Assembly: GCA_963816145.1 (NCBI GenBank)
Contig: CAWFJP010000031.1
Coordinates: forward strand, 256,001 to 320,000
Reading direction: 5' to 3'
DNA: 64,000 nucleotides
Origin: an uncultured delta proteobacterium
GTDB lineage: Bacteria; Desulfobacterota; Binatia; UBA9968
Shown here: positions 25,344 to 64,000 of the stretch, one piece after another
Position numbering within the stretch: position 1 is the first letter of the stretch
Layout: each line of letters starts with the position of its first letter
Made by a program: the position numbers and the translations under genes
Notes under the pieces: model-generated
The model's database searches: none
Seen by the model: the letters and a program-made list of their open reading frames with translations, nothing else
Told to the model about the DNA's origin: nothing

Positions 25344-25359
25344 TGTCTATTATTAGACA
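25344..25359 (+). promoter_or_regulatory. Crp/Fnr-type palindrome, site 1
   Basis: TGTCTATTATTAGACA; -10 TAGCAT at 25381. Confidence 0.75.
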
Positions 25360-25674
25360 GAAACCGCTGTCGACTCCGTTTAGCATGGCAGAGAATGCAT
25401 AGGTTCGAGTTGTCGCGCGGAACGCGGCGGGCAAGAGCCAAGATAATAATTCTGGTGCAATTTCTATCGAAGCCGATGAAAAAACAATGATTGAGGCAAA
25501 AGTTGCGGATGATCCAACGACCGCCGTCAAATGCGAGTCCTGCGGACATCGATATTGCTCGGTTTGCGAGGAGTGCTCGCTGTCGCAACGTTACTCGGAC
25601 TACTGGATTTGCCACAGCTGTGCATCGCTAACTCTATGGATTCCCGGTGTGGTTTAAAATAACGGAGGTGTTTT

Positions 25675-26025
25675 ATGGATTGGGACAAAGTTAAGCTCGG
25701 TGGCTGGAGCGCCGCCGGCGGCGCGGTACTGGCGATGATCGTCGGTTTTAACTGGGGTGGCTGGGTGACCGGCGGCACTGCCGATGTGTTGGCCAAAGAG
25801 ATTGCCGAAAATGCCGTGGCCAAACGTTTCACGCCGAGCTGTGTGGCTCGCTTCAACCAGGACGCGAAGAAAGAAGAGAAGCTCAAGGAGATCAAGGCCA
25901 AGGATGCTTGGGACGGACAAAAGTTCGTCGAAGAGCAGGGGTGGGCGACGCTGCCCGGAGAAGAAAGACCTGACAGCAAGGTCGCCGAAGGTTGTGCCAA
26001 AAGTCTCATGGAAGTTAAGTCGTAA
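25675..26025 (+). CDS. Membrane-anchored hypothetical protein with a Cys pair
   Basis: GGAGG RBS; N-terminal hydrophobic GGAVLAMIVGFNWGGW; CVARF and CAK. Confidence 0.75.
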   Translation: MDWDKVKLGGWSAAGGAVLAMIVGFNWGGWVTGGTADVLAKEIAENAVAKRFTPSCVARFNQDAKKEEKLKEIKAKDAWDGQKFVEEQGWATLPGEERPDSKVAEGCAKSLMEVKS

Positions 26026-26094
26026 ATTTTTGCGACCCATTCGGCTCGCAGTCAAAGCGCCGGCCGGATGAACATCGGCGGTAGGAGAATTTAA

Positions 26095-26214
26095 ATGGGC
26101 GACAAAAGCAAAAAGGATAAAGACAAGCACCAGAAGCAGAAGCAAATCCAGCAGCAAACCGCGGCAAAAACTGCGCTGGCGAAGCAAACGGCACCGGTCC
26201 CCAAAACCAAGTAG
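26095..26214 (+). CDS. Small Lys/Gln-rich protein (39 aa, not in the ORF track)
   Basis: AGGAG RBS then MGDKSKKDKDKHQKQKQIQQQTAAKTALAKQTAPVPKTK*. Confidence 0.6.
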   Translation: MGDKSKKDKDKHQKQKQIQQQTAAKTALAKQTAPVPKTK

Positions 26215-26310
26215 GGGCTATCTTTATCATCCTCATCTGCTACAATCATAGATACGATTACTGACCTGACGTTCAAATAGAACAAACTCGGTTTATTTCC
26301 CCCGAGTCTC

Positions 26311-26342
26311 GAAGAGGCGGTACCTAGGGTAACCGCCTCTTC
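26311..26342. other. Hairpin upstream of the glycosyltransferase gene
   Basis: GAAGAGGCGGT / ACCGCCTCTTC stem. Confidence 0.5.
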
Positions 26343-26360
26343 GTGTTTGTGGGCCGGAGC

Positions 26361-29673: not shown

Positions 29674-29874
29674 ATGGGTACTGAGACATTTCAAAAACGG
29701 CAAAAGGAAAATGCTCGGAAAGAAAAACATAAGCTGAAATTAGCCCGGCGGCTCGAACGCAAGAATGAAAAAGTGCCGGGCGAAAACAGCTTGGATGTGG
29801 ATATCTTGGAGCTCGAGCGGGCTGCCGAGAAGTCGGCGGACCAATCTTCGGGGCAGGCCGGACCCACGAACTGA
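29674..29874 (+). CDS. Small basic hypothetical protein
   Basis: AAGGAG RBS; TFQKRQKE.ARKEK highly charged helix. Confidence 0.65.
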   Translation: MGTETFQKRQKENARKEKHKLKLARRLERKNEKVPGENSLDVDILELERAAEKSADQSSGQAGPTN

Positions 29875-30055: not shown

Positions 30056-30568
30056 ATGACATTGAGTATTGGTGAAAAAGTCAGTCTTCCGAGTCACGGA
30101 CCATGTGTGATCGGTGCGGTGGTCAACAAGTTGGTTGGCGGCACGTCAACGGCTTTCTACCGGTTGGCGCCCCTCGAAGATAATGGCGGGGAACTGTTCA
30201 TTCCGGTCGACAAGATCACCGGATTGGGCATCCGGCAGTTGTTGCAAAAATCGGAGATTCCCAAGCTGCTCGGCCGGTTGAGCCAGCCGGGCAAACCAAT
30301 ACCACCGCCGTCCACGGCGCGCAATTGGAAACAGCGCGCCCTCGATAACGGCAAGCTGTTGTCTTCCGGGTCGGCGTCGGATCTGGTGCAGATCGTCGAG
30401 TCGCTCACCGACTTGAACGAGACCAAAACGCTGGCACCGCACGAGCGCCAGACTTTGGAGCGGGCGAAGAAGCTGCTGGTTTGCGAGATCACCGAAGTGT
30501 TGGGTGAATCTCGGAGTGCGGTGGCGGAACAGCTCGAAAAGGCGCTGCAAGCACGCAAAGTCGGTTGA
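30056..30568 (+). CDS. CarD family transcriptional regulator
   Basis: IGEKV..PSHGPCVI, IPV....LGIRQL, NWKQR, ERAKKLLVCEI. Confidence 0.88.
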   Translation: MTLSIGEKVSLPSHGPCVIGAVVNKLVGGTSTAFYRLAPLEDNGGELFIPVDKITGLGIRQLLQKSEIPKLLGRLSQPGKPIPPPSTARNWKQRALDNGKLLSSGSASDLVQIVESLTDLNETKTLAPHERQTLERAKKLLVCEITEVLGESRSAVAEQLEKALQARKVG

Positions 30569-32292: not shown

Positions 32293-32589
32293 ATGAAGTC
32301 CGACATTTCCTACAAGAACTATCGCATCCGTGGGGAATCGTTTCAGCCGACGCAAAGCAGCGGTTGGATTCCGCGCTATGTTTTACAGCGCGCCAATCCT
32401 AGCGCCGGCGATTCGCCGTTTAGCCACGACCGCCTCGACAAATCCTTCGGCAGCAAATCCGAGGCCGATGACTATGCTGTGCGAGATGCCAAGAGTTGGA
32501 TCGATAACTTTGGATCGGCAACCGTTGAGGTTGCATCGCCGGCAACGATAACTGGAGGTGTTTATGTCGTTAATAAACCAACTGCCTGA
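32293..32589 (+). CDS. Hypothetical protein
   Basis: 98-aa ORF, YKNYRI...F.SKSEAD.YA..AKSWID; its tail overlaps the nuoB start. Confidence 0.5.
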
Positions 32590-33064
32590 GACGGTGTTTA
32601 CGACCAAGGTGGATGAGCTGCTCAACTGGGGGCGCGCTTCGTCGCAGTGGTACATGCTGTTCGGTCTGGCCTGTTGCGCCATTGAGCTGATGCAGACCGG
32701 CGGCCCGCGCGCCGATGTCGATCGCTTCGGCGCGGTGCCGCGAGCGACGCCGCGGCAGTCCGATCTTATGATCGTCGCGGGCACTCTGACATACAAAATG
32801 GCCAAGCGGACCAAGCTCCTTTATGATCAGATGCCCGACCCGAAGTATGTGATCTCGATGGGCAGCTGCTCCAATTGCGGCGGGCTTTTTCAGCTCGCCT
32901 ATTCGGTCTGTAAAGGCGTGGACAAAATTATTCCGGTTGACGTTTACGTGCCCGGCTGTCCACCCCGTCCGGAGGCCCTAACCGAGGGGCTTTTGCGAAT
33001 TCAGGACAAGATTATGCGGGAGAAATGGCTGGTCAAAGACACGCCGGTGCCAGTTCCGGTCTAG
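32564..33064 (+). CDS. nuoB: NADH-quinone oxidoreductase subunit B, orphan copy
   Basis: [40 protein letters not shown]. Confidence 0.93.
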
Positions 33065-33353: not shown

Positions 33354-33769
33354 TCGTGTGCGAAGGGGTACATCAAGGCGGCAAATCCTGGATTGTTTCC
33401 GAGCACAGCGCCAGCGTTTTTCTCGGGCAAATTGGTTCAAAATTGAACTGCGCGTTTTCCGAGCCGGATGTAGCCTCTCGTCAAATAAGAGAGAGCTATC
33501 ATGAGCTTGAAATTTTTAACTCCACAGACCCTGTTTCTCAACGCATTCCGGCGCCGGCTTGGTGCGCATGCTGAAAGAAAAACAATCCGCGGGTTAACCC
33601 ACCTTGGGGGCATGGTCATGCGCCATATCGTTATCAGGTTCGGTGGATGACGGAGAAAGTTCTATTATCTATGAAATTATCGATTGAGAAATTCACAAGC
33701 CGAATTGTGCCAGCTCAATCCGACCGGCAATTTGCCCAAACTCCGGGCGATGCGGAGCCAGGAAAACGG

Positions 33770-35770
33770 ATGGCGGATTTCTTCGCCGACCTTCGTGTCC
33801 GTTACCATGAGAAGAAACAGAAGGAGTCGCCGAATGATAAAAAAATCCGCTTGGCGCCGATTTGGTATTTTCTTGCCTTGATGGCAATTGTAGTGGTGAT
33901 GCAACACCTGTTTGTCGGTGCCCATATCGAGATGATCAGCTATAGCCAATTCAAATCCCTGGTCAAAAATGACTTGGTCAACGATCTGGTTATTCATGAA
34001 ACGGTCATCGAGGGAAATCTAAAGGGAGCGGCGCTCAAGGTGATTCTTACGCCGGACAAACTGAAGGAGATATCTCCCGAAGTTCTTGCCGGCAAAACCC
34101 TCGTTCCCTTTGAAACGGTAAGAGTCGCGGACCCCGGTCTGACCGCTGAACTCGAAGCGGCGAAGGTTCCTTTCAAAGGGGAAGTTACCAGTAGTTGGCT
34201 ACCGACCCTTTTGTCGTGGATTGTTCCCGCGGCACTGTTCTTTCTGATCTGGAGCTATCTCGGCAAAAAGATGGGTTCGGCGAGCGGCGGCTTGATGCAG
34301 ATCGGTAAAAGCAAGGCGAAAGTCTACATCGAAAAAAAGACCGGTGTTACCTTTGCCGACGTTGCCGGCATCGACGAAGCTGAAGAAGAAGTCGCTGAAG
34401 TTGTCGGATTTCTAAAGGACCCGACCAAATATCAAAGATTGGGTGGACATATTCCCAAGGGTGTTTTGATCGTCGGCCCGCCAGGGACGGGGAAAACTTT
34501 GCTCGCCCGCGCCGTCGCCGGCGAAGCTGGGGTGCCGTTCTTTAGTTTGACGGGTTCTGACTTTGTCGAGATGTTTGTCGGCGTTGGCGCGGCACGGGTG
34601 AGAGATCTGTTTGCTCAAGCGGTGAAGAATGCGCCGAGCATCATATTCATCGATGAGCTCGACGCCATCGGTAAAGCTCGCGGCGTGAGCATGCTCACGG
34701 GCAATGACGAGCGCGAGCAAACCCTCAATCAGCTCTTGGCCGAAATGGACGGCTTCGATCCCAATCAAGGCGTCATCATCATGGCCGCCACCAACCGGCC
34801 GGAAATCCTCGATGCCGCGCTGCTCCGTCCCGGCCGCTTCGACCGGCAAATTCTGGTGGATCGTCCCGACATCAAAGGACGGACCAAGATTCTCGAACTT
34901 CACGCTAAAAAGGTGAAGCTCTCAGCGGCTATCGATCTCGCGATCGTCGCGGCTAAGACCCCTGGTTTTGTTGGCGCCGATCTCGCCAACATCGTCAACG
35001 AGGCGGCGTTACTAGCGGCGCGCCAGGATAAACAGTCGATCGACATGACGGAGTTCGACGAGGCGATCGAACGGGTGGTTGCAGGATTACAAAAGAAGAG
35101 CCATGTCATCAATCCGAAAGAGAAGAAAATCGTCGCCTATCATGAATCCGGCCACGCCCTGATGGCCGAGCTTGTCCCAGGTGCGGACCCCCTCGGCAAG
35201 ATCTCGATTATCCCGAGAGGCATCGCCGCGCTGGGTTACACAACCCAACTGCCGACCGAAGACCGTTACTTGATGACCCGTTCCGAGTTGCTCGCGCGGA
35301 TCAATGTTCTTTTGGGCGGCAGAGTCGCCGAGGAGATCGTTTTCGGCGATGTGTCGACCGGGGCGCAGAACGACTTACAGCGCGCCACAGAAATTGCCCG
35401 CACGATGATTACCCAATTCGGCATGAATGAAAAACTTGGCCTTGCTGCTCTCGAAGGGCCGCGTCACGCAACGTTCCTTCTGGTTCCGACGCAGAGTGCC
35501 AGAGAGTATAGCGAAGAAACCGCCCGGCAGATCGATGAAGAGGTGAAGCAGATCTTAGCAGATGCCCATGGCAAAGCACGGGATATCCTGGTTGCCTACC
35601 GCCCGGCGCTGGAGGAACTGGCCAAGCTGCTGTTGGAAAAAGAAGTCGTCGACCGGCCGGCGTTGCAGGCGATACTAAAGGTGCGGAGCATTGACAGTTT
35701 GAAAGACAAGAAGCGCGCGGTGGACACCGTGGGACCTGAGGGCAACCGATTCAACACCGACTGGGAATAA
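33770..35770 (+). CDS. ftsH: ATP-dependent zinc metalloprotease FtsH (frame open from 33647; start uncertain)
   Basis: Two TM segments, [28 protein letters not shown]. Confidence 0.95.
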
Positions 35771-38012: not shown

Positions 38013-38028
38013 CGTCTAATATTAGACA
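38013..38028 (+). promoter_or_regulatory. Crp/Fnr-type palindrome, site 2
   Basis: CGTCTAATATTAGACA; -10 TAAGCT at 38050. Confidence 0.8.
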
Positions 38029-38161
38029 TTAATCCATCACCAGTCCGTGTAAGCTCATCAGTTCCAGTTAAGCCAGTATCGGCCATCGGCGTTTACCTGA
38101 AATTCTTCAAGTAAGCCTGCTTTTGTATTTTCTTTTAACCGGTCCAACCGAGGAGGTTCCA

Positions 38162-38482
38162 ATGTTTAGCCGAAACGTGAGTTACAAGCTCAAGGCCAAA
38201 AGTGCGGCGGAGTTTACCCGCATTGTCGAAGGAGAAGTCATTCCCTTGCTGCGGCGGCAAAAAGGATTCGACGATGCAATCAGTTTCATCGCGCCGGAGC
38301 GCAATGAAGCGATCACGATCAGCCTGTGGGACAAAAAAGAAGACGCGGAGGCCCATATCGCGAAGACCTATCCGGAGATATTAAGGGCTCTTTCGAGCGT
38401 AGTCGAAGGCTCTCCTAAGGTGGAGTCCTTCGAGATCAGCAACTCGACCTCGCACCAGATCGCCGCCAGCCCGGTCAATTAG
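38162..38482 (+). CDS. Antibiotic biosynthesis monooxygenase (ABM)-like protein
   Basis: IPLLRRQKGF, ISLWDKKEDAEA; GAGGAGG RBS. Confidence 0.75.
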   Translation: MFSRNVSYKLKAKSAAEFTRIVEGEVIPLLRRQKGFDDAISFIAPERNEAITISLWDKKEDAEAHIAKTYPEILRALSSVVEGSPKVESFEISNSTSHQIAASPVN

Positions 38483-39582: not shown

Positions 39583-39756
39583 CTATGACTGTGGATCTTT
39601 TTGTCGGGTTGCCGTCACTCCATGGACGATCGCTATGCCGACCAAACAGAGAATGGCCACGCCGATCCACTGCATCGGCACGTTGAGTATATTGGCTCCG
39701 ATCGCCAGGCCGGCGATCAGTATGATGTATCCGACAAGATAGATTCCAAATGACAT
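39583..39756 (-). CDS. Small two-TM membrane protein (57 aa, not in the ORF track)
   Basis: AAGGAG RBS; MSFGIYLVGYIILIAGLAIGANILNVPMQWIGVAILCLVGIAIVHGVTATRQKDPQS*. Confidence 0.8.
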   Translation of the reverse strand: MSFGIYLVGYIILIAGLAIGANILNVPMQWIGVAILCLVGIAIVHGVTATRQKDPQS

Positions 39757-39845
39757 CGCAATTTCTCCTTGGTTCTTACTTCTGACTTGTCCCCGAAAAT
39801 GTGATTTTCAGGATTATGAGCATATAAAGGCCCGCTAAGCCTTGA

Positions 39846-39861
39846 TGTTCACTATGAGACA
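39846..39861 (-). promoter_or_regulatory. Crp/Fnr-type palindrome, site 3
   Basis: TGTCTCATAGTGAACA on the minus strand; -10 TATGCT at 39824-39819. Confidence 0.7.
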
Positions 39862-39918: not shown

Positions 39919-40551
39919 CTAAGTTTTCCCCTGCTTCTCGAAGGTCTGCAAAGTCTCTACGATCTCGCGGCTCAGCTCCCCGACGGTTTCGCTCAAGGCC
40001 TTGACGAAGTCTTCAGTGGCTAGTGACGCGGCACGCCGATGCAGTTGCGATCTTTGGCCGACCATAATCTTTTTGTTTCTATCGATCACGGTCCAGCGCG
40101 CCGTCAGCAAAGCCTCCTGATTACTGCTGGCCTCGAATTGGAGCACCTCGATTTTCACCTGATAATCCGGCGCGTCATGACTCTGCCAGGGGAATTGGAT
40201 GACTCGCGCGGGGTTAAGAAGATGGGAAATGTTTTGCTCTAAAACGCGACTGAAGCTTTCGCTCAGCGGCGCGGCCCAACGGTCGTTCTCGGAATAGCTT
40301 AATCGATTCGTCGACGTGCGTGTGGCGATCTGTTGGCGGTCGAGATAACCGGGCAATTCAATGGGGCCAAGGCCTACGGAAAAATGAGCTTTGATGCCGA
40401 CTGTGTTCTTGTCTGCCGCCAACTCCGCCTCGGGGAGAGCCCCGAGGATATAGAAACTTGACGGATCGGCTCTCGGCGCAAAGGTGGCACAACTTTCAAA
40501 CGAAACCCAGGTGGCGACGATCGCCAGAATCTTGCTCACCCGCCCGCTCAT
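39919..40551 (-). CDS. PqiC-like ABC auxiliary lipoprotein
   Basis: GLGPIELPGYLDRQQI, DRWAAPL, ARWTV. Confidence 0.85.
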   Translation of the reverse strand: MSGRVSKILAIVATWVSFESCATFAPRADPSSFYILGALPEAELAADKNTVGIKAHFSVGLGPIELPGYLDRQQIATRTSTNRLSYSENDRWAAPLSESFSRVLEQNISHLLNPARVIQFPWQSHDAPDYQVKIEVLQFEASSNQEALLTARWTVIDRNKKIMVGQRSQLHRRAASLATEDFVKALSETVGELSREIVETLQTFEKQGKT

Positions 40552-41555
40552 GGTTTTTTCTCGCTTTCCGGCCTACCGAACAACAGTGCCCGAGGATCTC
40601 GTTCAAGAAAATCGGCCATCAACCGGAGCGACCGCGCTGCCCCGGAAAGCTCTTTCAAAGCTTTGGTCAATTCATAAGCGGTCGGCGAGTTGGGATCGAC
40701 GAAGCCGTCCACGTTTGCCACGGTGACCTGGATCTGCTTGACCGCATCGCGAACGCCAGTCAGCGTCTCTTTCAAATCGGTCGAGAGCGTGGCCACGCTG
40801 CGATCGAGACTGCCGGCAACCTTTTGCACGCCGTCCGCGGCTTGGCTAATTCGCCGCACGGTTTCATCAAGTGATCGGACGGCCGCATGCAACTCGGGCT
40901 TATTGACCAAATGATTGACCCCGGCAATGGCTTCCCGCAGATCTTTGTTATTCGCCAGCCCCTCAAAATTCTTCACGGCGTCAGCAACGGAGGTAAGCAG
41001 CGCTTTGAAATCAATTTCATCGAGCTTGGTAATCAGCTGTCCGAGGATGTCCTGGGCTTTTTGAAGTGTTGTCGGGATGGTCGGGATTTCCTGGTACCGC
41101 GAGCCCGGCGGCTGAACGAACTTTGCCGGGCTGTCAGGAACGAGATCGAGCGCGACGAACAGCACGCCCGTAACGATACTTTCCGTCTGCAATTGAGCGC
41201 GTAGGCCTCGGTCAATTGCGGCTTTGAGCCCGGCCGCGTGTGTCAGACTACCGCCGACTCCTCTGCTGCCGCTGATCTTGGCGGCATCTAGGTCAATGAT
41301 CACGGGAATTCGGTTGACCTCCGCACCGTCATCGAGCTGCAATAGGATATTGGTAATGGTGCCGATTTCGACACCCTTGTATTTCACTGGCGCGCCTTCT
41401 CTTAGGCCGCTTACTGAGCCTTCGAAATAGAGTACGAACTCGTAGGTTTTGCGGAACAGCCGCCCCGAGCCGATGATCGTAACCGCGCCAATAAGCAAAA
41501 CGATAGCGCCGACCACGAAGGCGCCGATGAGCGTAGGATTGGCTTTTTTACTCAC
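40548..41555 (-). CDS. MCE/MlaD family protein (PqiB-like)
   Basis: KANPTLIGAFV, FEGSVSGLREGAPVKYKGVEIG, ERDPRALLFGR. Confidence 0.9.
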   Translation of the reverse strand: MSKKANPTLIGAFVVGAIVLLIGAVTIIGSGRLFRKTYEFVLYFEGSVSGLREGAPVKYKGVEIGTITNILLQLDDGAEVNRIPVIIDLDAAKISGSRGVGGSLTHAAGLKAAIDRGLRAQLQTESIVTGVLFVALDLVPDSPAKFVQPPGSRYQEIPTIPTTLQKAQDILGQLITKLDEIDFKALLTSVADAVKNFEGLANNKDLREAIAGVNHLVNKPELHAAVRSLDETVRRISQAADGVQKVAGSLDRSVATLSTDLKETLTGVRDAVKQIQVTVANVDGFVDPNSPTAYELTKALKELSGAARSLRLMADFLERDPRALLFGRPESEKKP

Positions 41556-42336: not shown

Positions 42337-42342
42337 CTCACA

Positions 42343-43721: not shown

Positions 43722-43737
43722 TGTCCAATAGTAGACC
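43722..43737 (-). promoter_or_regulatory. Crp/Fnr-type palindrome, site 4
   Basis: TGTCCAATAGTAGACC on the plus strand; minus-strand -10 CATAAT at 43700-43695, facing the mla-like operon. Confidence 0.7.
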
Positions 43738-47971: not shown

Positions 47972-47987
47972 TGTGCAAAAGTAGACA
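47972..47987 (-). promoter_or_regulatory. Crp/Fnr-type palindrome, site 5
   Basis: TGTCTACTTTTGCACA on the minus strand; -10 TATCCT at 47950-47945. Confidence 0.7.
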
Positions 47988-48121: not shown

Positions 48122-48137
48122 TGTCTAATATTGGACG
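48122..48137 (+). promoter_or_regulatory. Crp/Fnr-type palindrome, site 6
   Basis: TGTCTAATATTGGACG; -10 TATTCT at 48159, upstream of hsp20-lon. Confidence 0.8.
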
Positions 48138-48200
48138 GTCTTCAGAGACTTTTTGGCGTATTCTGAAACATGTGAATTTGCCGGAGGAGGTTCAGATTTT

Positions 48201-52639: not shown

Positions 52640-52909
52640 CAATCGAGACCCTCTCCCGCCGATTCGGATTTGCGCGAACAACGAACAGTAAACTGCCAAT
52701 TGGTAGACTTTTTCGCGGCGCTTAACAAGCGAGCCACTCCGGCGTAACGGATGATTCTTGCTTGACGGCGAACAGGTCAACTCCTGCGAGCTCGAGTAGC
52801 GCCAATTGAACGAGTTTACCCGCTAACGTGGTCGGCTTAACCTTGGCGATCCGTCAGACCTCGGAACGAATCCCGAACGAATCGGCCGGTTCTTCTACTT
52901 TGCTCGGCC

Positions 52910-53122
52910 TTACTGAAAGCGCGGCAACCCGAGTCGTGCCAGGCTCTCCAGCTTATGCACCCGCTCATCATAGCCGATCTGGCGGAAGAGATCGGCGAGG
53001 CAAGCGAACCTTCCGTAGTCCGCTCCAAACGCGCTCTCGAAGGGCACCTGTTCGAGGGCGATATTCTCCGCTACGTAGTTCATATATTCGTGCTCGGCGT
53101 GATCTTCGAAGTAGGCATTCAT
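52910..53122 (-). pseudogene. 3' fragment of an alternative-oxidase-like di-iron carboxylate protein
   Basis: NAYFEDHAEHEY and LADLFRQIGYDERVH (last ExxH helix pair); N-terminal part absent. Confidence 0.65.
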
Positions 53123-53159
53123 CTGCGCCCGTGACCCGGCGCGCGAATATTATGAACAT

Positions 53160-53175
53160 CGTCCAGTATTAGACA
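53160..53175 (+). promoter_or_regulatory. Crp/Fnr-type palindrome, site 7
   Basis: CGTCCAGTATTAGACA; -10 CATGAT at 53197. Confidence 0.8.
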
Positions 53176-53234
53176 GCAATCCCGCCCCAGGCGGCGCATG
53201 ATCAACATCAAATGACTTGGTTAGGGAGGTACAG

Positions 53235-53819
53235 ATGGAAACGTTAGACACACAAACATGGATTATACTCGCAGTGGTTATAGTCTTGGCATCGGTTGCA
53301 GTTGGGGCCTGGTACTTCTACCAAAAAAAGCGCTCCCAAAAGCTCCAAGATCACTTCGGGCCAGAATACGACCGAACTGTCACCGAACTCGGTAGTCGAG
53401 CTAAAGGCGAATCCGAACTCAAGGCGCGCGAAAAGCGCGTCGAGCGGCTCGAGCTTATACCATTGGCCGCGCCTGAAGCCGTCAGATTCAGCGAGGCTTG
53501 GCAAGCACTACAGAGCCGATTCGTCGATAACCCCAAGGGCGTAGTCGTCCAAGCCGAACAGTTGGTTCGCGAATTGATGGTAAAGCGCGGTTACCCCATG
53601 GGTGATTTTGAGCAACGCGCGGGCGATATCTCGGTTGACCACCCCGATGTTGTCGCCAATTACCGGGCGGCGCAAGCCATCGCCGTGCGCGATCAGCGGG
53701 GCTCGGCGGACACCGAGGAGCTGCGTAAAGCGGTAGTGCATTACCGCGCCCTGTTCGATGAACTGCTCGAGGTAAGAGCGCCCAAGGAAGAGATCGCCGC
53801 AGAGAAGCGTGTCGCATAG
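53235..53819 (+). CDS. Single-TM helical hypothetical protein
   Basis: N-terminal TM, FGPEYDR, Q.RFVD.P, RGYP, TEELR.A.VHYRALF.ELL; GGAGG RBS. Confidence 0.8.
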   Translation: METLDTQTWIILAVVIVLASVAVGAWYFYQKKRSQKLQDHFGPEYDRTVTELGSRAKGESELKAREKRVERLELIPLAAPEAVRFSEAWQALQSRFVDNPKGVVVQAEQLVRELMVKRGYPMGDFEQRAGDISVDHPDVVANYRAAQAIAVRDQRGSADTEELRKAVVHYRALFDELLEVRAPKEEIAAEKRVA

Positions 53820-53854
53820 CGCTAATCAAACAAAGATACAAGAAGGAACTGAAT

Positions 53855-54070
53855 ATGGAACGAACATACAAGAAAATTGAAATCGTCGGCAGCTCTGAGA
53901 CCAGCTTTGGCGATGCCACGCAAAATGCCGTGGCCAAGGCCTGCCAGTCACTACGCCATGTCGATTGGTTCGAAGTGACGGAAATGCGCGGCTTAGTTGA
54001 AAACAACAAAGTGAAAGAGTTCCAGGTCACCGTCAAGATCGGCTTTCGACTCGAAGATCAGCCGGCCTGA
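53855..54070 (+). CDS. Dodecin (flavin-binding protein)
   Basis: YKKIEIVGSS, WFEV.EMRG, FQVTVKIGFRLE. Confidence 0.95.
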   Translation: MERTYKKIEIVGSSETSFGDATQNAVAKACQSLRHVDWFEVTEMRGLVENNKVKEFQVTVKIGFRLEDQPA

Positions 54071-54119
54071 ACGCGATGATTATACCCGCGAGCAATCTCA
54101 CGTTCGTCAATCGTCGCAC

Positions 54120-54154
54120 CGACCTTTTGGTCGAAGTCTCCGACGCTTTCGCCG
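54120..54154 (+). promoter_or_regulatory. Tandem enhancer (UAS), CGAC-N6-GTCG x2
   Basis: CGACCTTTTGGTCG-N7-CGACGCTTTCGCCG. Confidence 0.7.
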
Positions 54155-54227
54155 TGCCTGCTCTCGGATTCACCGCCATACAGCTCGGAATGGTTGAGTA
54201 TTATCACATTCGTCTGGCGCCAAGGGG

Positions 54228-54243
54228 CGGCACAACAGTTGCG
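54228..54243 (+). promoter_or_regulatory. Sigma54 -24/-12 promoter
   Basis: CGGCACAACAGTTGCG, close to the TGGCAC-N5-TTGC consensus; 73 bp after the UAS. Confidence 0.75.
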
Positions 54244-54289
54244 CTAGAGGAGATGTAGATAAAAATTTTCAGTGGAGGATAAAAAAGTT

Positions 54290-55180
54290 ATGAAGAGATT
54301 ACGATCAGTTCTATCGCCGATGGTTACGACAGCGGGGATCTTGGCCTTGTCGGGTGCGGTTTTAGCTCAATCACCCAGCGAGTCCCACCGTGCTGCGAGC
54401 GCGCGGGCGCATGAAATTATGTCCAGTGCGCCTTGTCCGTTGCCCAGAGTTACCAAGGAAAAGATCACCGAAGACGAGGGGCGGGATTTAGCCCAAGCCT
54501 TTGCCGACAAAAACATGAACGGCTTTAGAGTCGTGCGGCCGTTGGGTTACGGCGGCGGTTACACGACGATGTGTTACCAGACCGCCAACGGCGCTCCGAC
54601 ACGGCCGCTGGTGTTATACTCTGTGGAGTATTCCATGGATCTAAAAAACCCAGCAGGTGAAACGCGCAATCTGTGCGTCGATCAATACGGCACGGTGAGC
54701 GAGTTCTGCAGCGATTTCGGCTTCGCGGGCGCAACCGGCCCGGCTGGTCCGATCGGCCCCATGGGCGCACAAGGTCCGGCGGGACCAATGGGCCCTCAGG
54801 CGACGGCTGCTGCTGAGGTAAGGAAATGGTCCTCGTTCAACAACATTCTGTTCGATTTCGACATGTCGGTCATTCGGTCCGACGAGACGAGCAAGGTAAC
54901 CGATATCGCGGCCTACTTGAAGCAGAATCCGACCGCCCGCGTGGGCATCGACGGCCACACCGATCCGCGCGGCACCGACGCTTACAACCAGGGCCTGAGC
55001 GAACGCCGTGTCAACGCCATTAGTGAGGCGCTGGTGACAGCCGGCGTGGCGACTGGCAAGATCCACACAGGCGCTTTCGGTGAGTCACAGCTCAAATGCC
55101 ATGAATCCACCGAGGCTTGCTGGCAGAGCGACCGTCGAGTCGAAGTGTTGATCGGCAACGCCGACATCGCCAGCCGATAA
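54290..55180 (+). CDS. Exported OmpA-like peptidoglycan-binding protein with a collagen-like linker
   Basis: Signal peptide; about 9 Gly-X-Y triplets; ILFDFD, IDGHTD.RG...YNQGLSERR, DRRVEV. Confidence 0.88.
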   Translation: MKRLRSVLSPMVTTAGILALSGAVLAQSPSESHRAASARAHEIMSSAPCPLPRVTKEKITEDEGRDLAQAFADKNMNGFRVVRPLGYGGGYTTMCYQTANGAPTRPLVLYSVEYSMDLKNPAGETRNLCVDQYGTVSEFCSDFGFAGATGPAGPIGPMGAQGPAGPMGPQATAAAEVRKWSSFNNILFDFDMSVIRSDETSKVTDIAAYLKQNPTARVGIDGHTDPRGTDAYNQGLSERRVNAISEALVTAGVATGKIHTGAFGESQLKCHESTEACWQSDRRVEVLIGNADIASR

Positions 55181-55314
55181 CCGCCAAGATCGATAGCTCT
55201 GGCAGAGCAGGTCTGAACTGCTGGAGCATCAAACTCACGCAACGACCCCTGGGACCAACCGGCTCTGGGGGTTGTTACGTATTAGCGAGCAATCGTGGTT
55301 TAATGCTTTCCTCC

Positions 55315-57045
55315 ATGCGCAAGTCGTTTTTACCGAGCCACTTTGTCGCTTTGGGAATGCTGGTCCTGATTTTGGTATCCCTCTACGGATTCATAGAGGC
55401 TCGCAGACTCAAGCGAGAATTCTTGCGCCAGACCGAAGACAAAGGCGTGGCATTGGCCAGCGCGATGGCGGCTGGCGTTACAAACGCTATCGTCGGCAAT
55501 GTTCCCTTGGAGAAGCAGATCGAGCAGCGCCTTTTGGCGAACGCCCGGTTAATCGACCAACTGCTCCTCACTCGCCGTGTCGATCAAGCGCTGCTCATGG
55601 AGGTCAGCACGCAAAATCGCTTACAAAAAATCGATCTCCTCGATCCGCAGGGCCAACCCAAAGAGATTTCCTCTCTGCAGGCGATGATCGCAAGGAAAGA
55701 CCAAGGCGTTGACCTCCCGCAGGAACGCGAACCGACGTTGATCTATATGTGGGGAAAGCGTTTGCGTTCGCAAGAGGCGAAACCTGCGAACCCGGTTATC
55801 AATCTACCGACCCGAATCACGGCAAATGAGTTTTGGAAAGGCAGCGCAATTGGCGTCGCTGTCGTCGCCCGCAGTTTTCCCGGGATCATCGCGGTCCACG
55901 CCAACGCTGACTATATTTTGAACTTCGACAAAGAAATCGGTTTGCAAAATCGAATCCAGGAGTTGGGCAGCGCAGCGGAGGCTGAGTTTGTCGCGCTTCT
56001 CGATAGCAACTTCAATGTCGTTGCTCATACGGACATGAGCCGGATCGGACAACGGGAAAAAGACACCCTTGTTTTGTCCGCCAACGGCGATCGTCAACTT
56101 TTGAGCCAAATCGTCGAGAGCAGCGGAGGGAAAGAGTACTTGGAAGTGGTCAAACCCGTTGCGTTGTATCAATCCAATATGGGATTCCTGAAAGTTGGGA
56201 TTTCCCTGGGGTCGATGGAGATCGCTTGGCGCAACAGCTTGCGTGCGATTCTCATTCTGGGAATAGCGATCTTCGCCGTGGGCATGCTCGGAATGGCGGC
56301 GATTTTCCATAATCAGAACTCCCATCTGCGACATGTCAAAGGTTTGGAAATCGAAGTGTTACATCGAGAACGCCTTTCAGCAATGGGCGATGTGGCTGCG
56401 GCGGTCGCTCATGAGGTGAGAAATCCGCTCAATGCCATCTCCATGGGTCTGCAGCGTCTGAAAATGGAATTTAAGCCCAGCGATGACCAGGAGGACTACT
56501 CTCGTCTCACCGGTTTAATGCTGGGTGAAGTGCACCGTCTGAACTCGATCGTCGAGCAGTTCCTCGCGCTGGCGCACCCTGTTGAGATCAAACCTGAGCC
56601 CTTGCCGTTGCCGGAAGTCCTGAAAGAGCTAGCAGCGTTACAAGACGGCACCGCGAGAGATTCGAATGTGCGCATCCAAGTAATAGCGGCGCCCAATACG
56701 CCGCCGCTCATGGCCGATCCCGCTCATCTAACCCAAGTGCTGATGAACCTCATGCTCAACGGTTTGCAAGCGATGCCCGACGGTGGAACCTTGACACTGG
56801 AGGCGAAAGCTTTGAACGGCAAATGTCGCATCGCGGTGGCGGATACCGGAGCCGGGATCGCGCCGGAAAACCAGCGGCGAATTTTTGAACCTTACTTCAC
56901 GACTAAGGTAAAGGGCACCGGGCTGGGTCTGGCGATCTCGCGCAGGATTATCGAAGCCCACGGCGGAACGCTCACTGTTACCAGTAAGGTGGGTCAAGGA
57001 TCCCGCTTCGAGATTTCATTGCCGCTCAACCGTGCGGAGGTGTAA
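55315..57045 (+). CDS. Sensor histidine kinase with two TM segments and a periplasmic domain
   Basis: AHEVRNPL, NLMLNGLQA, DTGAGI, FEPYFTTK..GTGLGL. Confidence 0.93.
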   Translation: MRKSFLPSHFVALGMLVLILVSLYGFIEARRLKREFLRQTEDKGVALASAMAAGVTNAIVGNVPLEKQIEQRLLANARLIDQLLLTRRVDQALLMEVSTQNRLQKIDLLDPQGQPKEISSLQAMIARKDQGVDLPQEREPTLIYMWGKRLRSQEAKPANPVINLPTRITANEFWKGSAIGVAVVARSFPGIIAVHANADYILNFDKEIGLQNRIQELGSAAEAEFVALLDSNFNVVAHTDMSRIGQREKDTLVLSANGDRQLLSQIVESSGGKEYLEVVKPVALYQSNMGFLKVGISLGSMEIAWRNSLRAILILGIAIFAVGMLGMAAIFHNQNSHLRHVKGLEIEVLHRERLSAMGDVAAAVAHEVRNPLNAISMGLQRLKMEFKPSDDQEDYSRLTGLMLGEVHRLNSIVEQFLALAHPVEIKPEPLPLPEVLKELAALQDGTARDSNVRIQVIAAPNTPPLMADPAHLTQVLMNLMLNGLQAMPDGGTLTLEAKALNGKCRIAVADTGAGIAPENQRRIFEPYFTTKVKGTGLGLAISRRIIEAHGGTLTVTSKVGQGSRFEISLPLNRAEV

Positions 57046-58470
57046 ATGCCAAATCGTTTTCACATTCTGGTCGTCGATGACGAACCGGCGCAGCGCGAGG
57101 TGATCTCGGGCTTTCTGCGCAAGCAAGGCTTTGAAGTGGTAACGGCCGATAGCGGGGAGCGCGCCTTGGAACTCTTTCGTCAGGACGCCTTTGATCTGAT
57201 TCTGACCGATCAAAAGATGGCTGGCATGACTGGCTTGGATCTGATGCAAGCGGTGCACACCATTAATTCGGACACGCCGGTCATCTTAATTACCGCTTTC
57301 GGCACCATCGCAGCCGCCGTGGCTGCCCTTAAAAAAGGCGCCATCGATTATCTGACCAAACCGTTAAATTTGGAAGAACTGTTGCACCGCATTCGACTAG
57401 TCAGCGACCGCTACCGAATTCTCACCGAGAACCGCGAGTTGCGGGAAGCGTTAGGGGAGCGACATCGTATCGAGGGCATCATCGGCGAGAGCGGGCCGAT
57501 GCTTGAAGTTCTTTCTATGGTGCGCCGGGTCGCGCCGAGTGAAGCGACGGTATTGATCCGGGGTGAGAGTGGCACGGGGAAAGAGCTGATTGCCCAGGCC
57601 ATTCACCATGGTAGCCCAAGAGCGCGCGGCCCCCTGATCAAGGTTAACTGCGCGGCGCTGCCTGAAGCGCTACTCGAATCGGAATTGTTCGGCCACGAGA
57701 AAGGTGCATTTACCGGGGCGACAGCGTCGCGCCAAGGACGTTTTGAGCTGGCCAACGGCGGGACGATCTTTCTCGATGAAATCGGCGACCTGCCGTTGCA
57801 TTTGCAGGCGAAGCTCCTGCGCGTGCTGCAAGAGAGGGAATACGAGAAGGTTGGCTCCAGCCGTCCAGTCAAGGTCAACGTCCGAATCCTCGCCGCCAGC
57901 CATCGGCCGCTGGAAGCGCTCATCAAAGCGGGACAATGGCGCGAGGATCTTTACTACCGGCTCAACGTTGTGACGATTCTTCTTCCGCCACTGCGCGAGC
58001 GGCGCTCCGATCTATCGCTGCTGATCGACCACTTCGTGCGCCACTTTGCCGAGAAGAACGGCAAGAAGATCGCCGGTCTGACGGACGCAGGTCGAGATAT
58101 TCTTTTGCGCTATGACTATCCGGGAAATGTCCGGGAGCTGGAAAATATTATTGAGCGCGCCGTAGTTCTCACCAGGGACGATGTGATTGGCCGCGGCGAT
58201 CTGCCGATCACGGTTCAAGAACTTGAAGCCATAGACGACGACGACGAACCCAACCTTGCCATCGCAGTTGAACGGGTGGAGCGCCGGATGATCCGGGAAG
58301 CGCTGGCGCGCTTCGAAGGGGTCCAAACCCGCGCCGCAGAGCGGCTTGGAATCAGTGAACGGGCGTTGCGCTATAAACTGATCAAATACGGCTTTCGTGA
58401 AGAAGCCTCAGATGTCGATGCCGATCCGCAAGCTAAATCTCCGCAAGAAAGTTCTGACCCGCAGGATTAA
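57046..58470 (+). CDS. Sigma54-dependent response regulator (NtrC/ZraR/AtoC-like)
   Basis: Receiver domain, GESGTGKE, GAFTGA, C-terminal Fis-type HTH. Confidence 0.95.
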   Translation: MPNRFHILVVDDEPAQREVISGFLRKQGFEVVTADSGERALELFRQDAFDLILTDQKMAGMTGLDLMQAVHTINSDTPVILITAFGTIAAAVAALKKGAIDYLTKPLNLEELLHRIRLVSDRYRILTENRELREALGERHRIEGIIGESGPMLEVLSMVRRVAPSEATVLIRGESGTGKELIAQAIHHGSPRARGPLIKVNCAALPEALLESELFGHEKGAFTGATASRQGRFELANGGTIFLDEIGDLPLHLQAKLLRVLQEREYEKVGSSRPVKVNVRILAASHRPLEALIKAGQWREDLYYRLNVVTILLPPLRERRSDLSLLIDHFVRHFAEKNGKKIAGLTDAGRDILLRYDYPGNVRELENIIERAVVLTRDDVIGRGDLPITVQELEAIDDDDEPNLAIAVERVERRMIREALARFEGVQTRAAERLGISERALRYKLIKYGFREEASDVDADPQAKSPQESSDPQD

Positions 58471-58641
58471 CGGATTTCTTCTGAGGTCGGCACGAAGGCT
58501 TTAACAATCGCGAATTCCACCTCAACGGTCACCCCACACGCCTCTAGGAGCAGGCTCGTCACGTTCACGACTGGATTCTCGGTGGCACGTACGAGAGTAA
58601 CGTACTTCGGTTAGCAATCCAGCCATCTTTCTTGTCGAATT

Positions 58642-58657
58642 CGTCCAGTATTAGACA
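58642..58657 (+). promoter_or_regulatory. Crp/Fnr-type palindrome, site 8
   Basis: CGTCCAGTATTAGACA, identical to site 7; -10 match is weak. Confidence 0.7.
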
Positions 58658-58749
58658 GCGATCCCTGCCGATCCCCGATTAAGTGTATAAACGAAAAAGG
58701 CAGGCTCCGACCCAATCATCACGATTGATAAGGCTTGTTCGGAGGAGAG

Positions 58750-59154
58750 TTGTTGTCAAAGAAAATACTGGTTGTTGAAGATTCTTGTGATCTACGGGAG
58801 CTGCTGGGAAGCGGTCTCGCGTCATTGGGCTGGAACCCCATTCTTGCTGAGAGCGGCCGAGAATCGCTGGCAAAACTTGAGTGTGAAACTCCGAGCGTTA
58901 TTCTCATGGACAAGGGCTTAGGTGATATGAACGGCTTCGAGCTCGCGGCGGTTCTAAAACGGCACCCTGTTTATAAAAGAATCCCGATTCTGGGAACGAC
59001 CGCGTTTCCCGGTTGTCTAGTCCGGCAGCATTGTCTTGCGGCGGGCTGCGATGATTTCATTTCCAAGCCCTTCGGCTTTGCCGCGCTTCATAGGCGACTG
59101 ACGCAGCTAGTATACGGCGAACGATCGAGCACGGCGGTGGCAGCCGGGCTATGA
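58750..59154 (+). CDS. Single-domain response regulator (DivK/CheY-like)
   Basis: ILVVED, ILMD, AAGCDDFISKP; GGAGG RBS. Confidence 0.88.
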   Translation: MLSKKILVVEDSCDLRELLGSGLASLGWNPILAESGRESLAKLECETPSVILMDKGLGDMNGFELAAVLKRHPVYKRIPILGTTAFPGCLVRQHCLAAGCDDFISKPFGFAALHRRLTQLVYGERSSTAVAAGL

Positions 59155-59264
59155 CATTGCCGTCGAATCGCGGACGTAGCTTCAAGGGAATCTGACCGCT
59201 GGTTAAATCGTTATTGACGAGCGTCAGGACCGCGTGGAATCCATCGGCAATTTTTTTTTAAGCT

Positions 59265-59280
59265 CGTTCAATACTAGACA
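59265..59280 (+). promoter_or_regulatory. Crp/Fnr-type palindrome, site 9
   Basis: CGTTCAATACTAGACA; TACACG at the expected -10 position (59302). Confidence 0.7.
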
Positions 59281-59364
59281 GAAACCGTTTGCTACTCAGC
59301 GTACACGTACCGGGCCAGACTCGATAGTCATCATCAGGATGAGTACGTCTGGTTCGGAGGAGAT

Positions 59365-59835
59365 ATGCTGACTTCGAGGAAAATACTGATTGTCGAAGAT
59401 CGCGGTGATCTTCTCGATCTTTTAGGCGAAGCGCTAGGCCTCTTGGGGTGGGAGACCATCCTTGCCGAGAGTGGCCGCGAAGCAATGAACAAACTTGAGG
59501 ACGACTTGCCCAGCGTCGTTTTTTTGGACTTGGGAACGCCTCTGATGAACGGCATCGAGTTGGCAGCCTCTCTCAAAGCGCATCCTGTCTATAAAGATAT
59601 ACCGATTCTTGCGGCGAGTGGCCGTTCCGGCGAACTGATCCGCAAGCTCTGCCTTGCGGCAGGCTGTGACGATTTCATATCTAAGCCGCTCGTGTTTGCC
59701 GAGCTGGAAATGCGTCTTAACAGTCTATGGTTCTTGGAGAGACGAAAAATAATTTGCGCAGGCGAACCGGTGAATTTGGCATCTGATGGCTGGAAACTAA
59801 ATGCGCGCGGCGGCAGTCGTCGCAAAGTCGCTTAG
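59365..59835 (+). CDS. Single-domain response regulator, paralog of 58750-59154
   Basis: ILIVED, VFLD, AAGCDDFISKP. Confidence 0.88.
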   Translation: MLTSRKILIVEDRGDLLDLLGEALGLLGWETILAESGREAMNKLEDDLPSVVFLDLGTPLMNGIELAASLKAHPVYKDIPILAASGRSGELIRKLCLAAGCDDFISKPLVFAELEMRLNSLWFLERRKIICAGEPVNLASDGWKLNARGGSRRKVA

Positions 59836-61318: not shown

Positions 61319-61333
61319 GGTCGACGGCAATTA

Positions 61334-62475: not shown

Positions 62476-62510
62476 TGACTATTTAGTCGAAAGTCTCGAC
62501 GCTTTCGCCG
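62476..62510 (+). promoter_or_regulatory. Tandem enhancer (UAS), CGAC-N6-GTCG x2
   Basis: TGACTATTTAGTCG-N7-CGACGCTTTCGCCG; second unit identical to 54141-54154. Confidence 0.65.
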
Positions 62511-62686
62511 AGCGTTCTTTGATTGGTTTATCTTGACGGTTAAAAAATCTTTCCGAACATCTAGCTTTTTCCTCTGGTCTCTCGGCGGTTTATTGCCACG
62601 GCGGCGAGTTCCAACCACAAATTGGTTTACTATATAAACGGGAACGGCCGTAAGGGCGCCGGTCTTGAAAACAGGGGGGGTGCTTT

Positions 62687-62938
62687 TTGCCTTTGGTTCA
62701 AATCGTATTGGTCCTGATCGTGGTGGGTATTCTCCTCGGGCTGATCAATCGCTACATACCGATGGCGGGATCTATTAAGTCGATGTGGTCAAGTAGTTCC
62801 CAATCAATCGTTGCCTATGGGCAAAGGAAGCAAGTGTTACGCGGCGAAGTACAGAAAGCGTTTGAACGGCTAGGCTACTTTCAGGATCCTGAGCCGAATA
62901 CCGTCGTTGAACTTGGGATTCGAATGAGTCCGAAGTGA
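62687..62938 (+). pseudogene. Chimeric ORF: Thivi_2564-like membrane protein N-terminus fused to a fragment of the 63141 family
   Basis: MPLVQIVLVLIVVGILLGLINRYIPMAGSIKS, then WSSSSQSIVAYGQR matching WSSNPQLIVAYEQR of 63141-63365. Confidence 0.65.
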
Positions 62939-63140
62939 CATTAAGACGGCCCACCGATGAGCGGCTAGTTAACACCATTGGTTTCGACGATTTGGTCGAA
63001 GTGTTCGACGTCGCCGACGAGCATATCGTTTCGGCCCGTTTATCATGCAAATATTGCCTTGCAATCTCCAGCATCTTCCCCGCGTCAAGCTCTGGCACGT
63101 GTTCTGCTCTCTGAATGGATTGGATGCAAAGGAGCTTGTT

Positions 63141-63365
63141 ATGAAGAAAATCATTGAAATCCACGGTCAGCGGGTCGAACTCTACAGCCGAGACGAGGGC
63201 CGCACCTGGTCGAGCAATCCGCAATTAATTGTCGCCTATGAGCAACGCCGGGAGATGTTGCGCTTGGAGATACAACAGAAGTTCGCACGGATAGACGATA
63301 TGCAGGCATCGAAGCGCTACGGCTCCCATGGATTCGAGATGTCAAGCCGAGTGTCTTCATGGTGA
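63141..63365 (+). CDS. Small hypothetical protein
   Basis: AAGGAG RBS; partial paralog at about 62784-62880. Confidence 0.65.
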   Translation: MKKIIEIHGQRVELYSRDEGRTWSSNPQLIVAYEQRREMLRLEIQQKFARIDDMQASKRYGSHGFEMSSRVSSW

Positions 63366-63865
63366 GAAAAAAACGAGAGCGCGTGCCTTCAATGTTTTAA
63401 CCATTGCTATTGTAATTTCGGCGCAACGAGGAATCGGTCACGCAAAGATAAAAGACAACATAATGATCCCTCGGCTATATCGAACGGTGAAATGAGAGTC
63501 GCGAGGTCGTGATCATGAAAATCAATTATTTCAAAATAGCAAACCGTAGTATTGAGGTTCTCGAACAGTCGAACAAGATTAGCTATTGGCAACTCATCGC
63601 TCTTCAGAGCCGAGCTAATGGTTGTTTCTATCAGTTTGATAAACTCCCCCAGATAAGATGGAAGTGGCCGACCGGCACGTGGTTTCAAGAACGGCTGGCC
63701 AAAAATCCCGGGATGCCGTCCTTCCAGCACAGTGACCGAATAGTTACATAGCGCCGAGCAGCGACCATCGTGAAGTGCCGAGCATACGGAATCCTGGAGC
63801 CGGGACTGCGGCATTCATCGACTCGTCGACCGGCGTAGCGGGCAATCGGAAAATATTTTCGCAAT

Positions 63866-63881
63866 TGTCCGCTTTTAGACG
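63866..63881 (+). promoter_or_regulatory. Crp/Fnr-type palindrome, site 10
   Basis: TGTCCGCTTTTAGACG; -10 TATTCT at 63903; AGGAGGA RBS at the window end. Confidence 0.7.
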
Positions 63882-64000
63882 GGAATGCCTCTCGGGCGAG
63901 GCTATTCTCTATTCGAGAGAAACGTTACAGCACCGCCCCGAGAACTCTCGGGCGAAGGCCAAAGCCATTTACTTTACTCGTAGTCACCAAAAAAGGAGGA

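Follow-up and report, generated by a model that had tools for sequence, protein, structure and literature searches.

Regulators of the CRP/FNR superfamily in Escherichia coli activate class II promoters, at which the site is centred at -41.5 and the -35 element is poor, and the general stress regulons of SigB, RpoS and EcfG are known for marker genes such as CsbD, YflT, YtxH, BON and lmo0937. To our knowledge, the stress regulation of Binatia and Blastocatellia, mostly uncultured soil groups, is undescribed. The stretch of DNA analysed here (the window; 64,000 nucleotides of contig CAWFJP010000031.1, assembly GCA_963816145.1, from an uncultured delta proteobacterium of the lineage Desulfobacterota, Binatia, UBA9968) harbours a series of 16-bp palindromes, hereafter the boxes, and the gene of a Crp/Fnr-family protein, P0001, located among them. 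With a probability of roughly 0.8, the boxes represent the sites of a dimer of P0001 and of its two paralogues encoded elsewhere in the genome, which would activate class II promoters. As far as the compared sequences tell, the mechanism of activation would be textbook class II, while the box specificity and the regulator subfamily appear to be new. No description of the box or the regulon was found in the literature searched, most subscription journals lying outside the search, and the accessible part of PMC3590769 features neither a TGTC motif nor Acidobacteria.

An earlier, sequence-only reading of the window had listed ten such 16-mers, proposed their control by one Crp/Fnr activator and seen none of them in the first 25 kb. 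Each of the ten is present at its coordinate, and a scan of the window with a matrix built from the ten recovers no site above 11.0 bits in the first 25 kb. With this matrix, the ten sites score 16.1-26.2 bits, as compared to 11.0 bits for the next-best site of the window, and in a leave-one-out analysis every site still ranks in the top 10. The full 16-bp consensus is YGTCYAATATTRGACR with a conserved centre AATATT, so that the free N6 spacer of the motif as first worded, TGTCT-N6-AGACA, does not hold. This 5-6-5 pattern alone, with at most two mismatches, gives 19 matches versus 14.1 expected, a number reached by 12 of 100 shuffles, and as the plain pattern is not enriched, the signal depends on the conserved centre. 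Equally, the genome scan with a position weight matrix that had been proposed as a check yields 26 sites of at least 14 bits, without excess over column-permuted matrices (3-169 sites); since the genome-wide count falls within the permuted controls, the evidence consists of clustering and position, not of abundance.

Clustering becomes apparent with a second matrix, trained on sites of related loci that had themselves been chosen with the window matrix. In the following, positions without prefix refer to the window, C31, C1, C15 and C29 are contigs of its genome (G000), and G and L designate genomes and comparison loci. The relatives' matrix detects 18 genome sites of at least 15 bits, 10 of which lie inside a post hoc delimited 55-kb island that takes in the right part of the window and holds two of the three Crp paralogues. 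The proposed regulon is an island rather than genome-wide. A weaker eleventh site ahead of ftsH (Box 11, Table 1) was found with the same matrix, two further boxes lie beyond the window end and two more (at least 12 bits) 5 kb from the C1 paralogue. That the palindromes are chance occurrences or remnants of a mobile repeat, to which the lack of enrichment of the 5-6-5 pattern, the genome count within its controls and a similar palindrome in integron-like tandem arrays would lend themselves, can be considered refuted, as 9 window sites reach at least 15 bits with the relatives' matrix versus 0-1 in each of 30 Markov simulations, the spacing to the -10 element is fixed, the box flanks differ except for the promoter elements, and the arrays possess neither T tract nor -10 element.

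Position relative to the promoter is the second line of evidence. A -10-like hexamer 21 nt from the box, equivalent to 29.5 bp from its centre, had been described on the strand of the downstream gene for eight of the ten sites, and YAnnnT indeed occurs there in 8/10 original sites, and a hexamer at 21 nt in 9/11 when Box 11 is included. Outside this genome, 63 loci with a close Crp homologue, amounting to 807 kb and partly redundant and related, contain 136 sites of at least 16 bits versus 0-12 for 20 permuted matrices. On 69 of the 270 sides of 135 of these sites TAnnnT follows at a 21-nt spacer, while all other offsets from 5 to 49 give 0-12 (12 at 22 nt). The intergenic location noted in the window is equally pronounced, with 4 of the 136 sites inside open reading frames (ORFs) of at least 150 amino acids, although such ORFs cover 65% of the DNA. 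In the 81 relatives' sites that can be oriented by their -10 element, the box is preceded at 6-13 bp by a T tract and closely followed by G.AA (G in 75, A in 70 and A in 63 of 81), at the place where a -35 element would fall at a 17-nt spacer; the consensus there is CAGnAA versus TTGACA, hence there is no consensus -35. Groups of related records are named here and below by their titles, labels which are not fully reliable, and kin are not independent. In twenty more loci taken together, the hexamer is found at 21 nt in 29 of 47 Blastocatellia-class sites, at 22 nt in 6 and not at all in 12; of the 34 Binatia sites, 23 have it at 21 nt, 3 at 20 or 22 nt and 8 lack it. A sigma-70 consensus scan of 52900-59400 retrieved 0 promoters versus 3.7 in shuffles, a method uninformative here.

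Modelled on the E. coli CRP paradigm, the dimer would bind at -41.5, overlapping the -35 region, and contact the housekeeping sigma factor and the alpha subunits, with the alpha C-terminal domain placed on the upstream T tract, whereas promoters without the dimer would be off. The regulon would then correspond to the island, with its general-stress, envelope and protein-quality-control genes. The same protein could conversely act as a repressor whose operator covers the -35 element, the right half-site TAGACA serving as -35; this half-site equals TTGACA at 5/6 positions, and an operator so placed would block the polymerase. Sigma-70 accepts spacers of 16-18 nt, however, and TAGACA as -35 implies 21 nt, TGGACA and TGAACA are more frequent at this half-site, and a 17-nt spacer leaves only nnGnAA. 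As the spacing is near-exact to the base, as expected of activator contact, repression is very improbable and activation by the Crp dimer is preferred.

Linkage of box and regulator across genomes is the third line of evidence. Of the 63 loci that contain a close Crp homologue, 55 carry a site, as against 0 of 4 whose Crp proteins are distant, the comparison loci being centred on the Crp gene, which is thus shared among them by construction. In the genus of the window, 17 genomes with an orthologue of P0001 contain 111 strict matches and 7 without contain 11. Among 80 Blastocatellia-class genomes, 117 matches (4.5 each) fall to the 26 with orthologue versus 18 (0.33 each) to the 54 without, and two or more strict matches occur in 19/26 versus 4/54. 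On a single-contig chromosome of 9.5 Mb titled Acidobacteriota, 7 of 11 strict sites are located in 36 kb around four Crp copies and one beside a fifth. A box about 75-125 bp ahead of the Crp gene itself in L053, L069, L071 and G086 suggests self-activation of Blastocatellia-class copies that carry their own box. The strict pattern was found in 0 of 16 genomes from other families of the order (groupings as labelled), and a 150-genome sample of the labelled 'phylum' returned no match at E 1e-30. In a phylogenetic tree, 19 of 20 Binatia rows fall into one subclade (96/86) among Blastocatellia rows, several titled rows falling across groups, by which a transfer of the Crp gene between the two groups is only suggested. 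This recurrence of geometry and linkage in other genomes argues for the claimed class II arrangement, with a predicted centre at -41.5, and for a shared Crp/Fnr activator.

Several observations weigh against this conclusion. The reversed-pattern control is also higher in those of the 80 Blastocatellia-class genomes that possess the orthologue (2.5 versus 0.87 per genome), and some matches in both groups belong to unrelated tandem arrays that lie in integron-like surroundings and lack promoter context. Five of the 26 genomes with orthologue gave no strict match; three of these have slightly variant matrix sites near the gene, G094 has one weak site and the fifth is G099. The Crp gene of the window itself is devoid of a box directly upstream. 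Conversely, G004 (92% complete) has 10 matches at no more than one mismatch, a syntenic island and four sites in promoter context, with no orthologue found in the assembly; its island runs into a contig end and contains a distant Crp protein (26%) with the helix GASRQQVTE. The fragmented G024 and G011 also retain a few full promoters, and no orthologue was found in them. Finally, the borders of the 55-kb island were drawn after the sites had been seen, and base frequencies in the relatives' sites are biased towards the window matrix because they were chosen with it.

Another regulator could therefore bind the box with the Crp gene merely co-located, candidates being the sigma-54 activator of the window (57046-58470), the distant 'RQQVT' Crp and the CarD-like protein. 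G004 speaks in favour, as it combines boxes, the sigma-54 activator (84%) and the distant Crp in its island with no orthologue found, and CarD is common to the window and the Blastocatellia-class islands (46-52% identity in five of them). The Blastocatellia-class loci with the same box, however, hold only 24-33% matches to the sigma-54 activator, and sigma-54 activators do not act at sigma-70 -10 elements. The distant Crp type (L127:10394-11122, L020, L101), present in G004, G008 and G024, was not found in the window's genome, and is disfavoured as binder because G008 possesses it with 1 match lacking promoter context. We know of no CarD protein that reads palindromes. A different binder is thus unlikely, and P0001 with its paralogues remains the favoured one.

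The tandem arrays consist of a near-identical palindrome, GGTGTCTA-N4-TAGACACC, in 3-4 copies at 20- and about 48-bp spacing (L117:4621-4723, L118:4508-4591, L119:4786-4841, L120:4558-4661, L121:4496-4579). They occur in genomes with and without Crp orthologue, display no T tract or -10 element and usually sit after a conserved gene of ~140 amino acids and before GAATTCATGTT; L121 has an adjacent integrase-like ORF. The arrangement looks like an integron attI region. The genome of the window has two integrase genes (C15:184063-185022 and 202193-203173) that share 58% identity with the integrase-like ORF next to the L121 array. A small protein beside the Blastocatellia arrays gave no tblastn match in the window's genome and hence cannot bind the box here.

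P0001 matches PF00027 (47.8 bits) and PF13545 (53.2 bits), both above cut-off, which assigns it to the CRP/FNR superfamily with cyclic-nucleotide-binding barrel, helix C and Crp helix-turn-helix. Its AlphaFold model (97-sequence alignment, pLDDT 93.5) shows a normal CRP fold, with MtbCRP and GlxR as best Foldseek matches (TM about 0.8). The paralogues are encoded at C31:331630, 12 kb beyond the window (82%), and at C1:110346 (76%), and the three are the only full-length proteins with Crp and helix-turn-helix domains found in the genome by family profile. All share the helix GTTRPRISLFM. The 'one activator' of the sequence-only reading consequently means one family, as the two paralogues share the recognition helix; the Crp/Fnr candidate, which that reading did not name, is encoded in the window.

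In the CRP residue numbering that we take to apply, alignment to GlxR equates R188 of P0001 with CRP Arg180, while P189 replaces Glu181 and L193 replaces Arg185. P189 is present in 63 and R190 in all of 65 orthologues. Among relatives' half-sites, in a set biased towards the window matrix, position 4 is C in 208, T in 58 and G in 4 of 270, and position 5 is C or T, never A; the half-site thus reads YGTCY and the right half is mostly TGGACA or TGAACA rather than TAGACA. Pro189 in place of CRP Glu181 would explain the C/T instead of G at position 4. In CRPMt, Glu189 makes the contact to 4G or 13C, and with Pro in its place, as in Cmr, G and C become unfavourable there (PMC5758884). P0001 is not CRP proper, with a half-site other than TGTGA, Pro as Glu181 equivalent, no Thr/Ser(Asn) pair in helix C and 61.6 bits for PRK11753 (cut-off 266). 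It is not FNR, as its N-terminal 40 residues are free of cysteine, its motif differs from TTGAT and PRK11161 scores 48.9 bits (cut-off 228). Nor is it Cmr proper, given the box position 5 that is never A and the absence of Cmr from the 60 best PDB sequence hits.

Three triggers of the regulator are conceivable. The most likely one, although just short of an even chance, is a small molecule that would occupy the conserved phosphate-binding pocket and be sensed in another way than CRP senses cAMP; G80, E81 and R90 (phosphate-binding Gly-Glu and Arg) as well as the helix-C pair Q134/Q135, at the place of CRP T127/S128, are found in 65/65 orthologues, and 16 matches to class III cyclases occur in the genome. 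Somewhat less likely is regulation through the amount of the protein, to which a sigma-54 promoter ahead of the second paralogue and the presence of Lon and FtsH in the regulon itself would contribute. A thiol switch at C68 (64/65 orthologues) and C83 (62/65) is the least likely of the three; C41 and C107 are less conserved.

The nearest annotated relatives of P0001, found in a plasmid collection, are encoded in leinamycin-type clusters (43% over 213 residues versus 25-30% to solved Crp proteins). By gene position, we take them to be LnmO of Streptomyces atroolivaceus, which is said to be a positive regulator by the title of its paper, and P0001 groups with these LnmO-type regulators as far as sequence likeness goes. 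They share the GTTR.R helix, QQ and DSEQRL, whereas their helix reads R-S-R-V-G versus R-P-R-I-S here, their box has C at position 3 and their targets belong to antibiotic biosynthesis. PMC9396626 describes lrgR2 as a cluster activator of unstated family and is not drawn upon here. Three leinamycin-type clusters contain intergenic boxes of the kindred type TGCTCAAT-n-GAGCA, accompanied by a -10-like hexamer 21-22 nt away, an observation made post hoc and without formal control; one example, TGCTCAATCCGGAGCA, has -10-like hexamers at 21 nt on both sides. This suggests that the whole subfamily may read an inner CAAT and work at -41.5. The candidate LnmO-type sites are located on Streptomyces and Kitasatospora plasmids (L114:28290; L116:28130; L115:14814, 21705 and 24993; L164:19509 and 25079).

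Table 1. Boxes, predicted -10 elements and associated genes (aa, amino acids; positions in the window).
Feature	Position	Strand	Context
Box 1	25344..25359	+	-10 TAGCAT 25381-25386; A/T tract upstream; ahead of 116-aa unknown protein (25675-26025)
CarD-like protein	30056..30568	+	in island; without own box in the window
Box 11	33434..33449	+	-10 TAGCCT 33471-33476, 21 nt from box; ahead of ftsH (33647-35770)
Box 2	38013..38028	+	-10 TAAGCT 38050-38055; ahead of 106-aa protein (38162-38482), then Crp gene
Crp/Fnr regulator P0001, 227 aa	38751..39434	+	candidate binder; recognition helix T-R188-P189-R190-I-S-L
Box 3	39846..39861	-	-10 TATGCT 39819-39824; ahead of 57-aa membrane protein (39583-39756)
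Box 4	43722..43737	-	-10 CATAAT 43695-43700; ahead of MlaE / ABC ATPase / MlaD / auxiliary lipoprotein operon (39919-43530)
Box 5	47972..47987	-	-10 TATCCT 47945-47950; ahead of lmo0937-family membrane protein (47723-47869)
Box 6	48122..48137	+	-10 TATTCT 48159-48164; ahead of hsp20 (48201-48632) and lon (48629-51037)
Box 7	53160..53175	+	-10 CATGAT 53197-53202; starts co-directional run from 194-aa protein (53235-53819)
Box 7 run, continued			dodecin 53855-54070; then OmpA-domain protein, histidine kinase, sigma-54 activator (54272-58470)
Box 8	58642..58657	+	imperfect -10 TTAAGT at 21 nt; ahead of stand-alone receiver (58735-59154)
Box 9	59265..59280	+	imperfect -10 TACACG at 21 nt; strong T tract upstream; ahead of second stand-alone receiver (59365-59835)
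Box 10	63866..63881	+	-10 TATTCT 63903-63908; ahead of CsbD gene just past the window (C31:320208)

Genes linked to boxes in this genome (those of the window in Table 1) encode Hsp20-Lon, FtsH, lmo0937, dodecin, the products of the Mla-like operon, a YflT-domain protein, two CsbD proteins, two receivers and a number of small proteins of unknown kind, and a region with an M48 peptidase is linked as well, while BON, YtxH-like and superoxide dismutase (SOD) genes are located in the island. For several of these pairings the box precedes the same gene elsewhere, as for the homologue of the Box 1 target in L077, for ftsH in G019, G017 and L042, for Box 2 with its 106-aa gene in 4 related loci and for lmo0937 at 6 sites in 5 loci titled Blastocatellia or Acidobacteriota. 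The position of Box 6, which is oriented by -10 element and gene because no T tract lies upstream, is matched in G017 and G019, and in G018 a box stands directly before lon. The label 'ABM protein', once given to the product of 38162-38482, finds no support in any Pfam or NCBIfam match at E 1e-4. In relatives, 97 of 135 sites gave a first ORF, in 45 clusters with some short ORF calls likely spurious, among them lmo0937 (6), SufB (4), a PAS-GGDEF protein (4) and Crp itself (4), and furthermore SOD, an ice-binding protein, FtsH and CarD. Nine RNA runs, all in the form of contigs, share 5-7% of the sequence words. In the four of these that were aligned, the pieces over hsp20, lon, lmo0937 and one receiver stem from strains akin to this one; as they reveal neither transcript starts nor strand or expression level, no conclusion is drawn from them.

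The sequence-only reading had considered a general stress or dormancy regulon. General stress fits the targets (CsbD twice, YflT, lmo0937, Hsp20-Lon), whereas dormancy or hypoxia finds no support in marker genes, no Usp having turned up among the ORFs scanned. That the signal is low oxygen or dormancy, as for the lxa locus or DosR, would be compatible with the proposed mechanism. Burkholderia cenocepacia lxa is, by PMC3721108, likewise a self-contained clustered island, in which one palindromic motif occurs at 17 intergenic sites and which comprises an internal CRP-family gene, an ABC transporter, an ATP-dependent Zn protease and the small heat-shock protein alpha-crystallin. The regulon of Cmr, whose helix likewise begins with Arg-Pro, overlaps that of DosR (PMC4705688). 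Unlike here, lxa has the motif TGA-N6-TCA, Anr-like regulators, Usp genes and a proven low-oxygen induction (PMC3721108). An lxa-type low-oxygen island was rejected for the present locus, as it has no TGA-N6-TCA motif and Usp families gave no hit among the 52 and 42 proteins scanned. With CsbD, YflT and lmo0937 as targets, BON and YtxH in the island, SOD and SufB in relatives and no early cysteine in P0001, low oxygen or dormancy is a possible but rather doubtful signal, and general stress is preferred.

None of the 14 sigma-70 region 2 matches of the genome lies in the island; its -10 element, TAnnnT, could also be read by a group 2 sigma factor encoded elsewhere. For the Box 7 run we infer a single operon from its co-directional genes, and in G004 a box directly heads the run of kinase and sigma-54 activator. 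A sigma-54-like TGGCAC-N5-TTGC is found at C31:331347 (L088:11347), ahead of a small membrane gene and the second Crp paralogue. A loop is possible, in which Box 7 would drive kinase and sigma-54 activator, and the sigma-54 promoter in turn the second paralogue.

Further features of the window include an ORF at 43976-44782 with the C-terminal cation-ATPase domain only, probably a remnant, a lone NuoB-like (20-kDa subunit) gene at 32564-33064 without the remaining complex I operon, two tiny lysine-rich ORFs with ribosome-binding sites in the island (26095-26214 and 29674-29874) and, at 63093, a sigma-54-like -24/-12 motif ahead of a 74-aa ORF at 63141. Near the C1 paralogue, two overlapping ORFs at L089:12465-14256 correspond to the N-terminal and the C-terminal portion of an enzyme of the glycogen-branching type, which looks frameshifted. 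In two genomes, a solitary box that is not part of the island lies ahead of a shared, conserved ORF of ~90 amino acids and a solute-binding gene (C29:156997 of the window's genome, equal to L090:3997, and L125:6423).

The locus provides a regulator with a precise site and predicted start sites, for which a single gene and a single promoter would suffice as a test in E. coli, and gives several unknown small proteins a shared context. As position 181 is occupied by Pro and the spacer, unlike that of CRP and FNR sites, is conserved, it is also a natural test of the CRP recognition code, and it raises the question of the ligand of a pocket with G-E-R but Gln-Gln. More speculative, and on balance improbable, is a portable general-stress module common to two phyla of uncultured, abundant soil bacteria, in which a Crp-type activator would sense a non-canonical nucleotide in place of a stress sigma factor and form a positive loop with a sigma-54 two-component system, its subfamily having been recruited in streptomycetes for leinamycin-type clusters. 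If true, the box grammar would predict promoters in silent antibiotic clusters.

Compared with E. coli CRP and FNR, the system shares the fold, the 16-bp palindromic core, the predicted centre at -41.5, the poor -35, the Arg180 equivalent and the phosphate-binding G-E and R. It departs from them in the half-site YGTCY instead of TGTGA or TTGAT, in the conserved centre AATATT and in its targets, the stress genes of an island, and P0001, with 25-30% identity, deviates from CRP by Glu181 to Pro, Arg185 to Leu/Val and T127/S128 to Gln-Gln. SigB, RpoS and EcfG regulons contain the same marker genes, whereas here an activator would act at sigma-70-type promoters and no sigma gene is part of the island. 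Myxococcus MrpC, compared by motif alone, also belongs to the Crp/Fnr family, and its motif TGTYN8RAC agrees, at the outer bases only, with boxes that start with T, whereas, by PMC4320627, the 8-bp centre of the MrpC motif is free and its sites are dispersed and number in the hundreds. Mycobacterial Cmr (Rv1675c) resembles P0001 by a helix that starts with Arg-Pro (GAQRPSINKI) and by a 16-bp site with 2G, 3T, 14A and 15C and no G at position 4, a likeness that is probably convergent, because Cmr is not among the 60 best PDB sequence hits of P0001. Its consensus from systematic evolution of ligands by exponential enrichment is TGTCA-N6-(C/T)GACA (PMC4705688), whereas the box described here has C/T at position 5 and a conserved centre.

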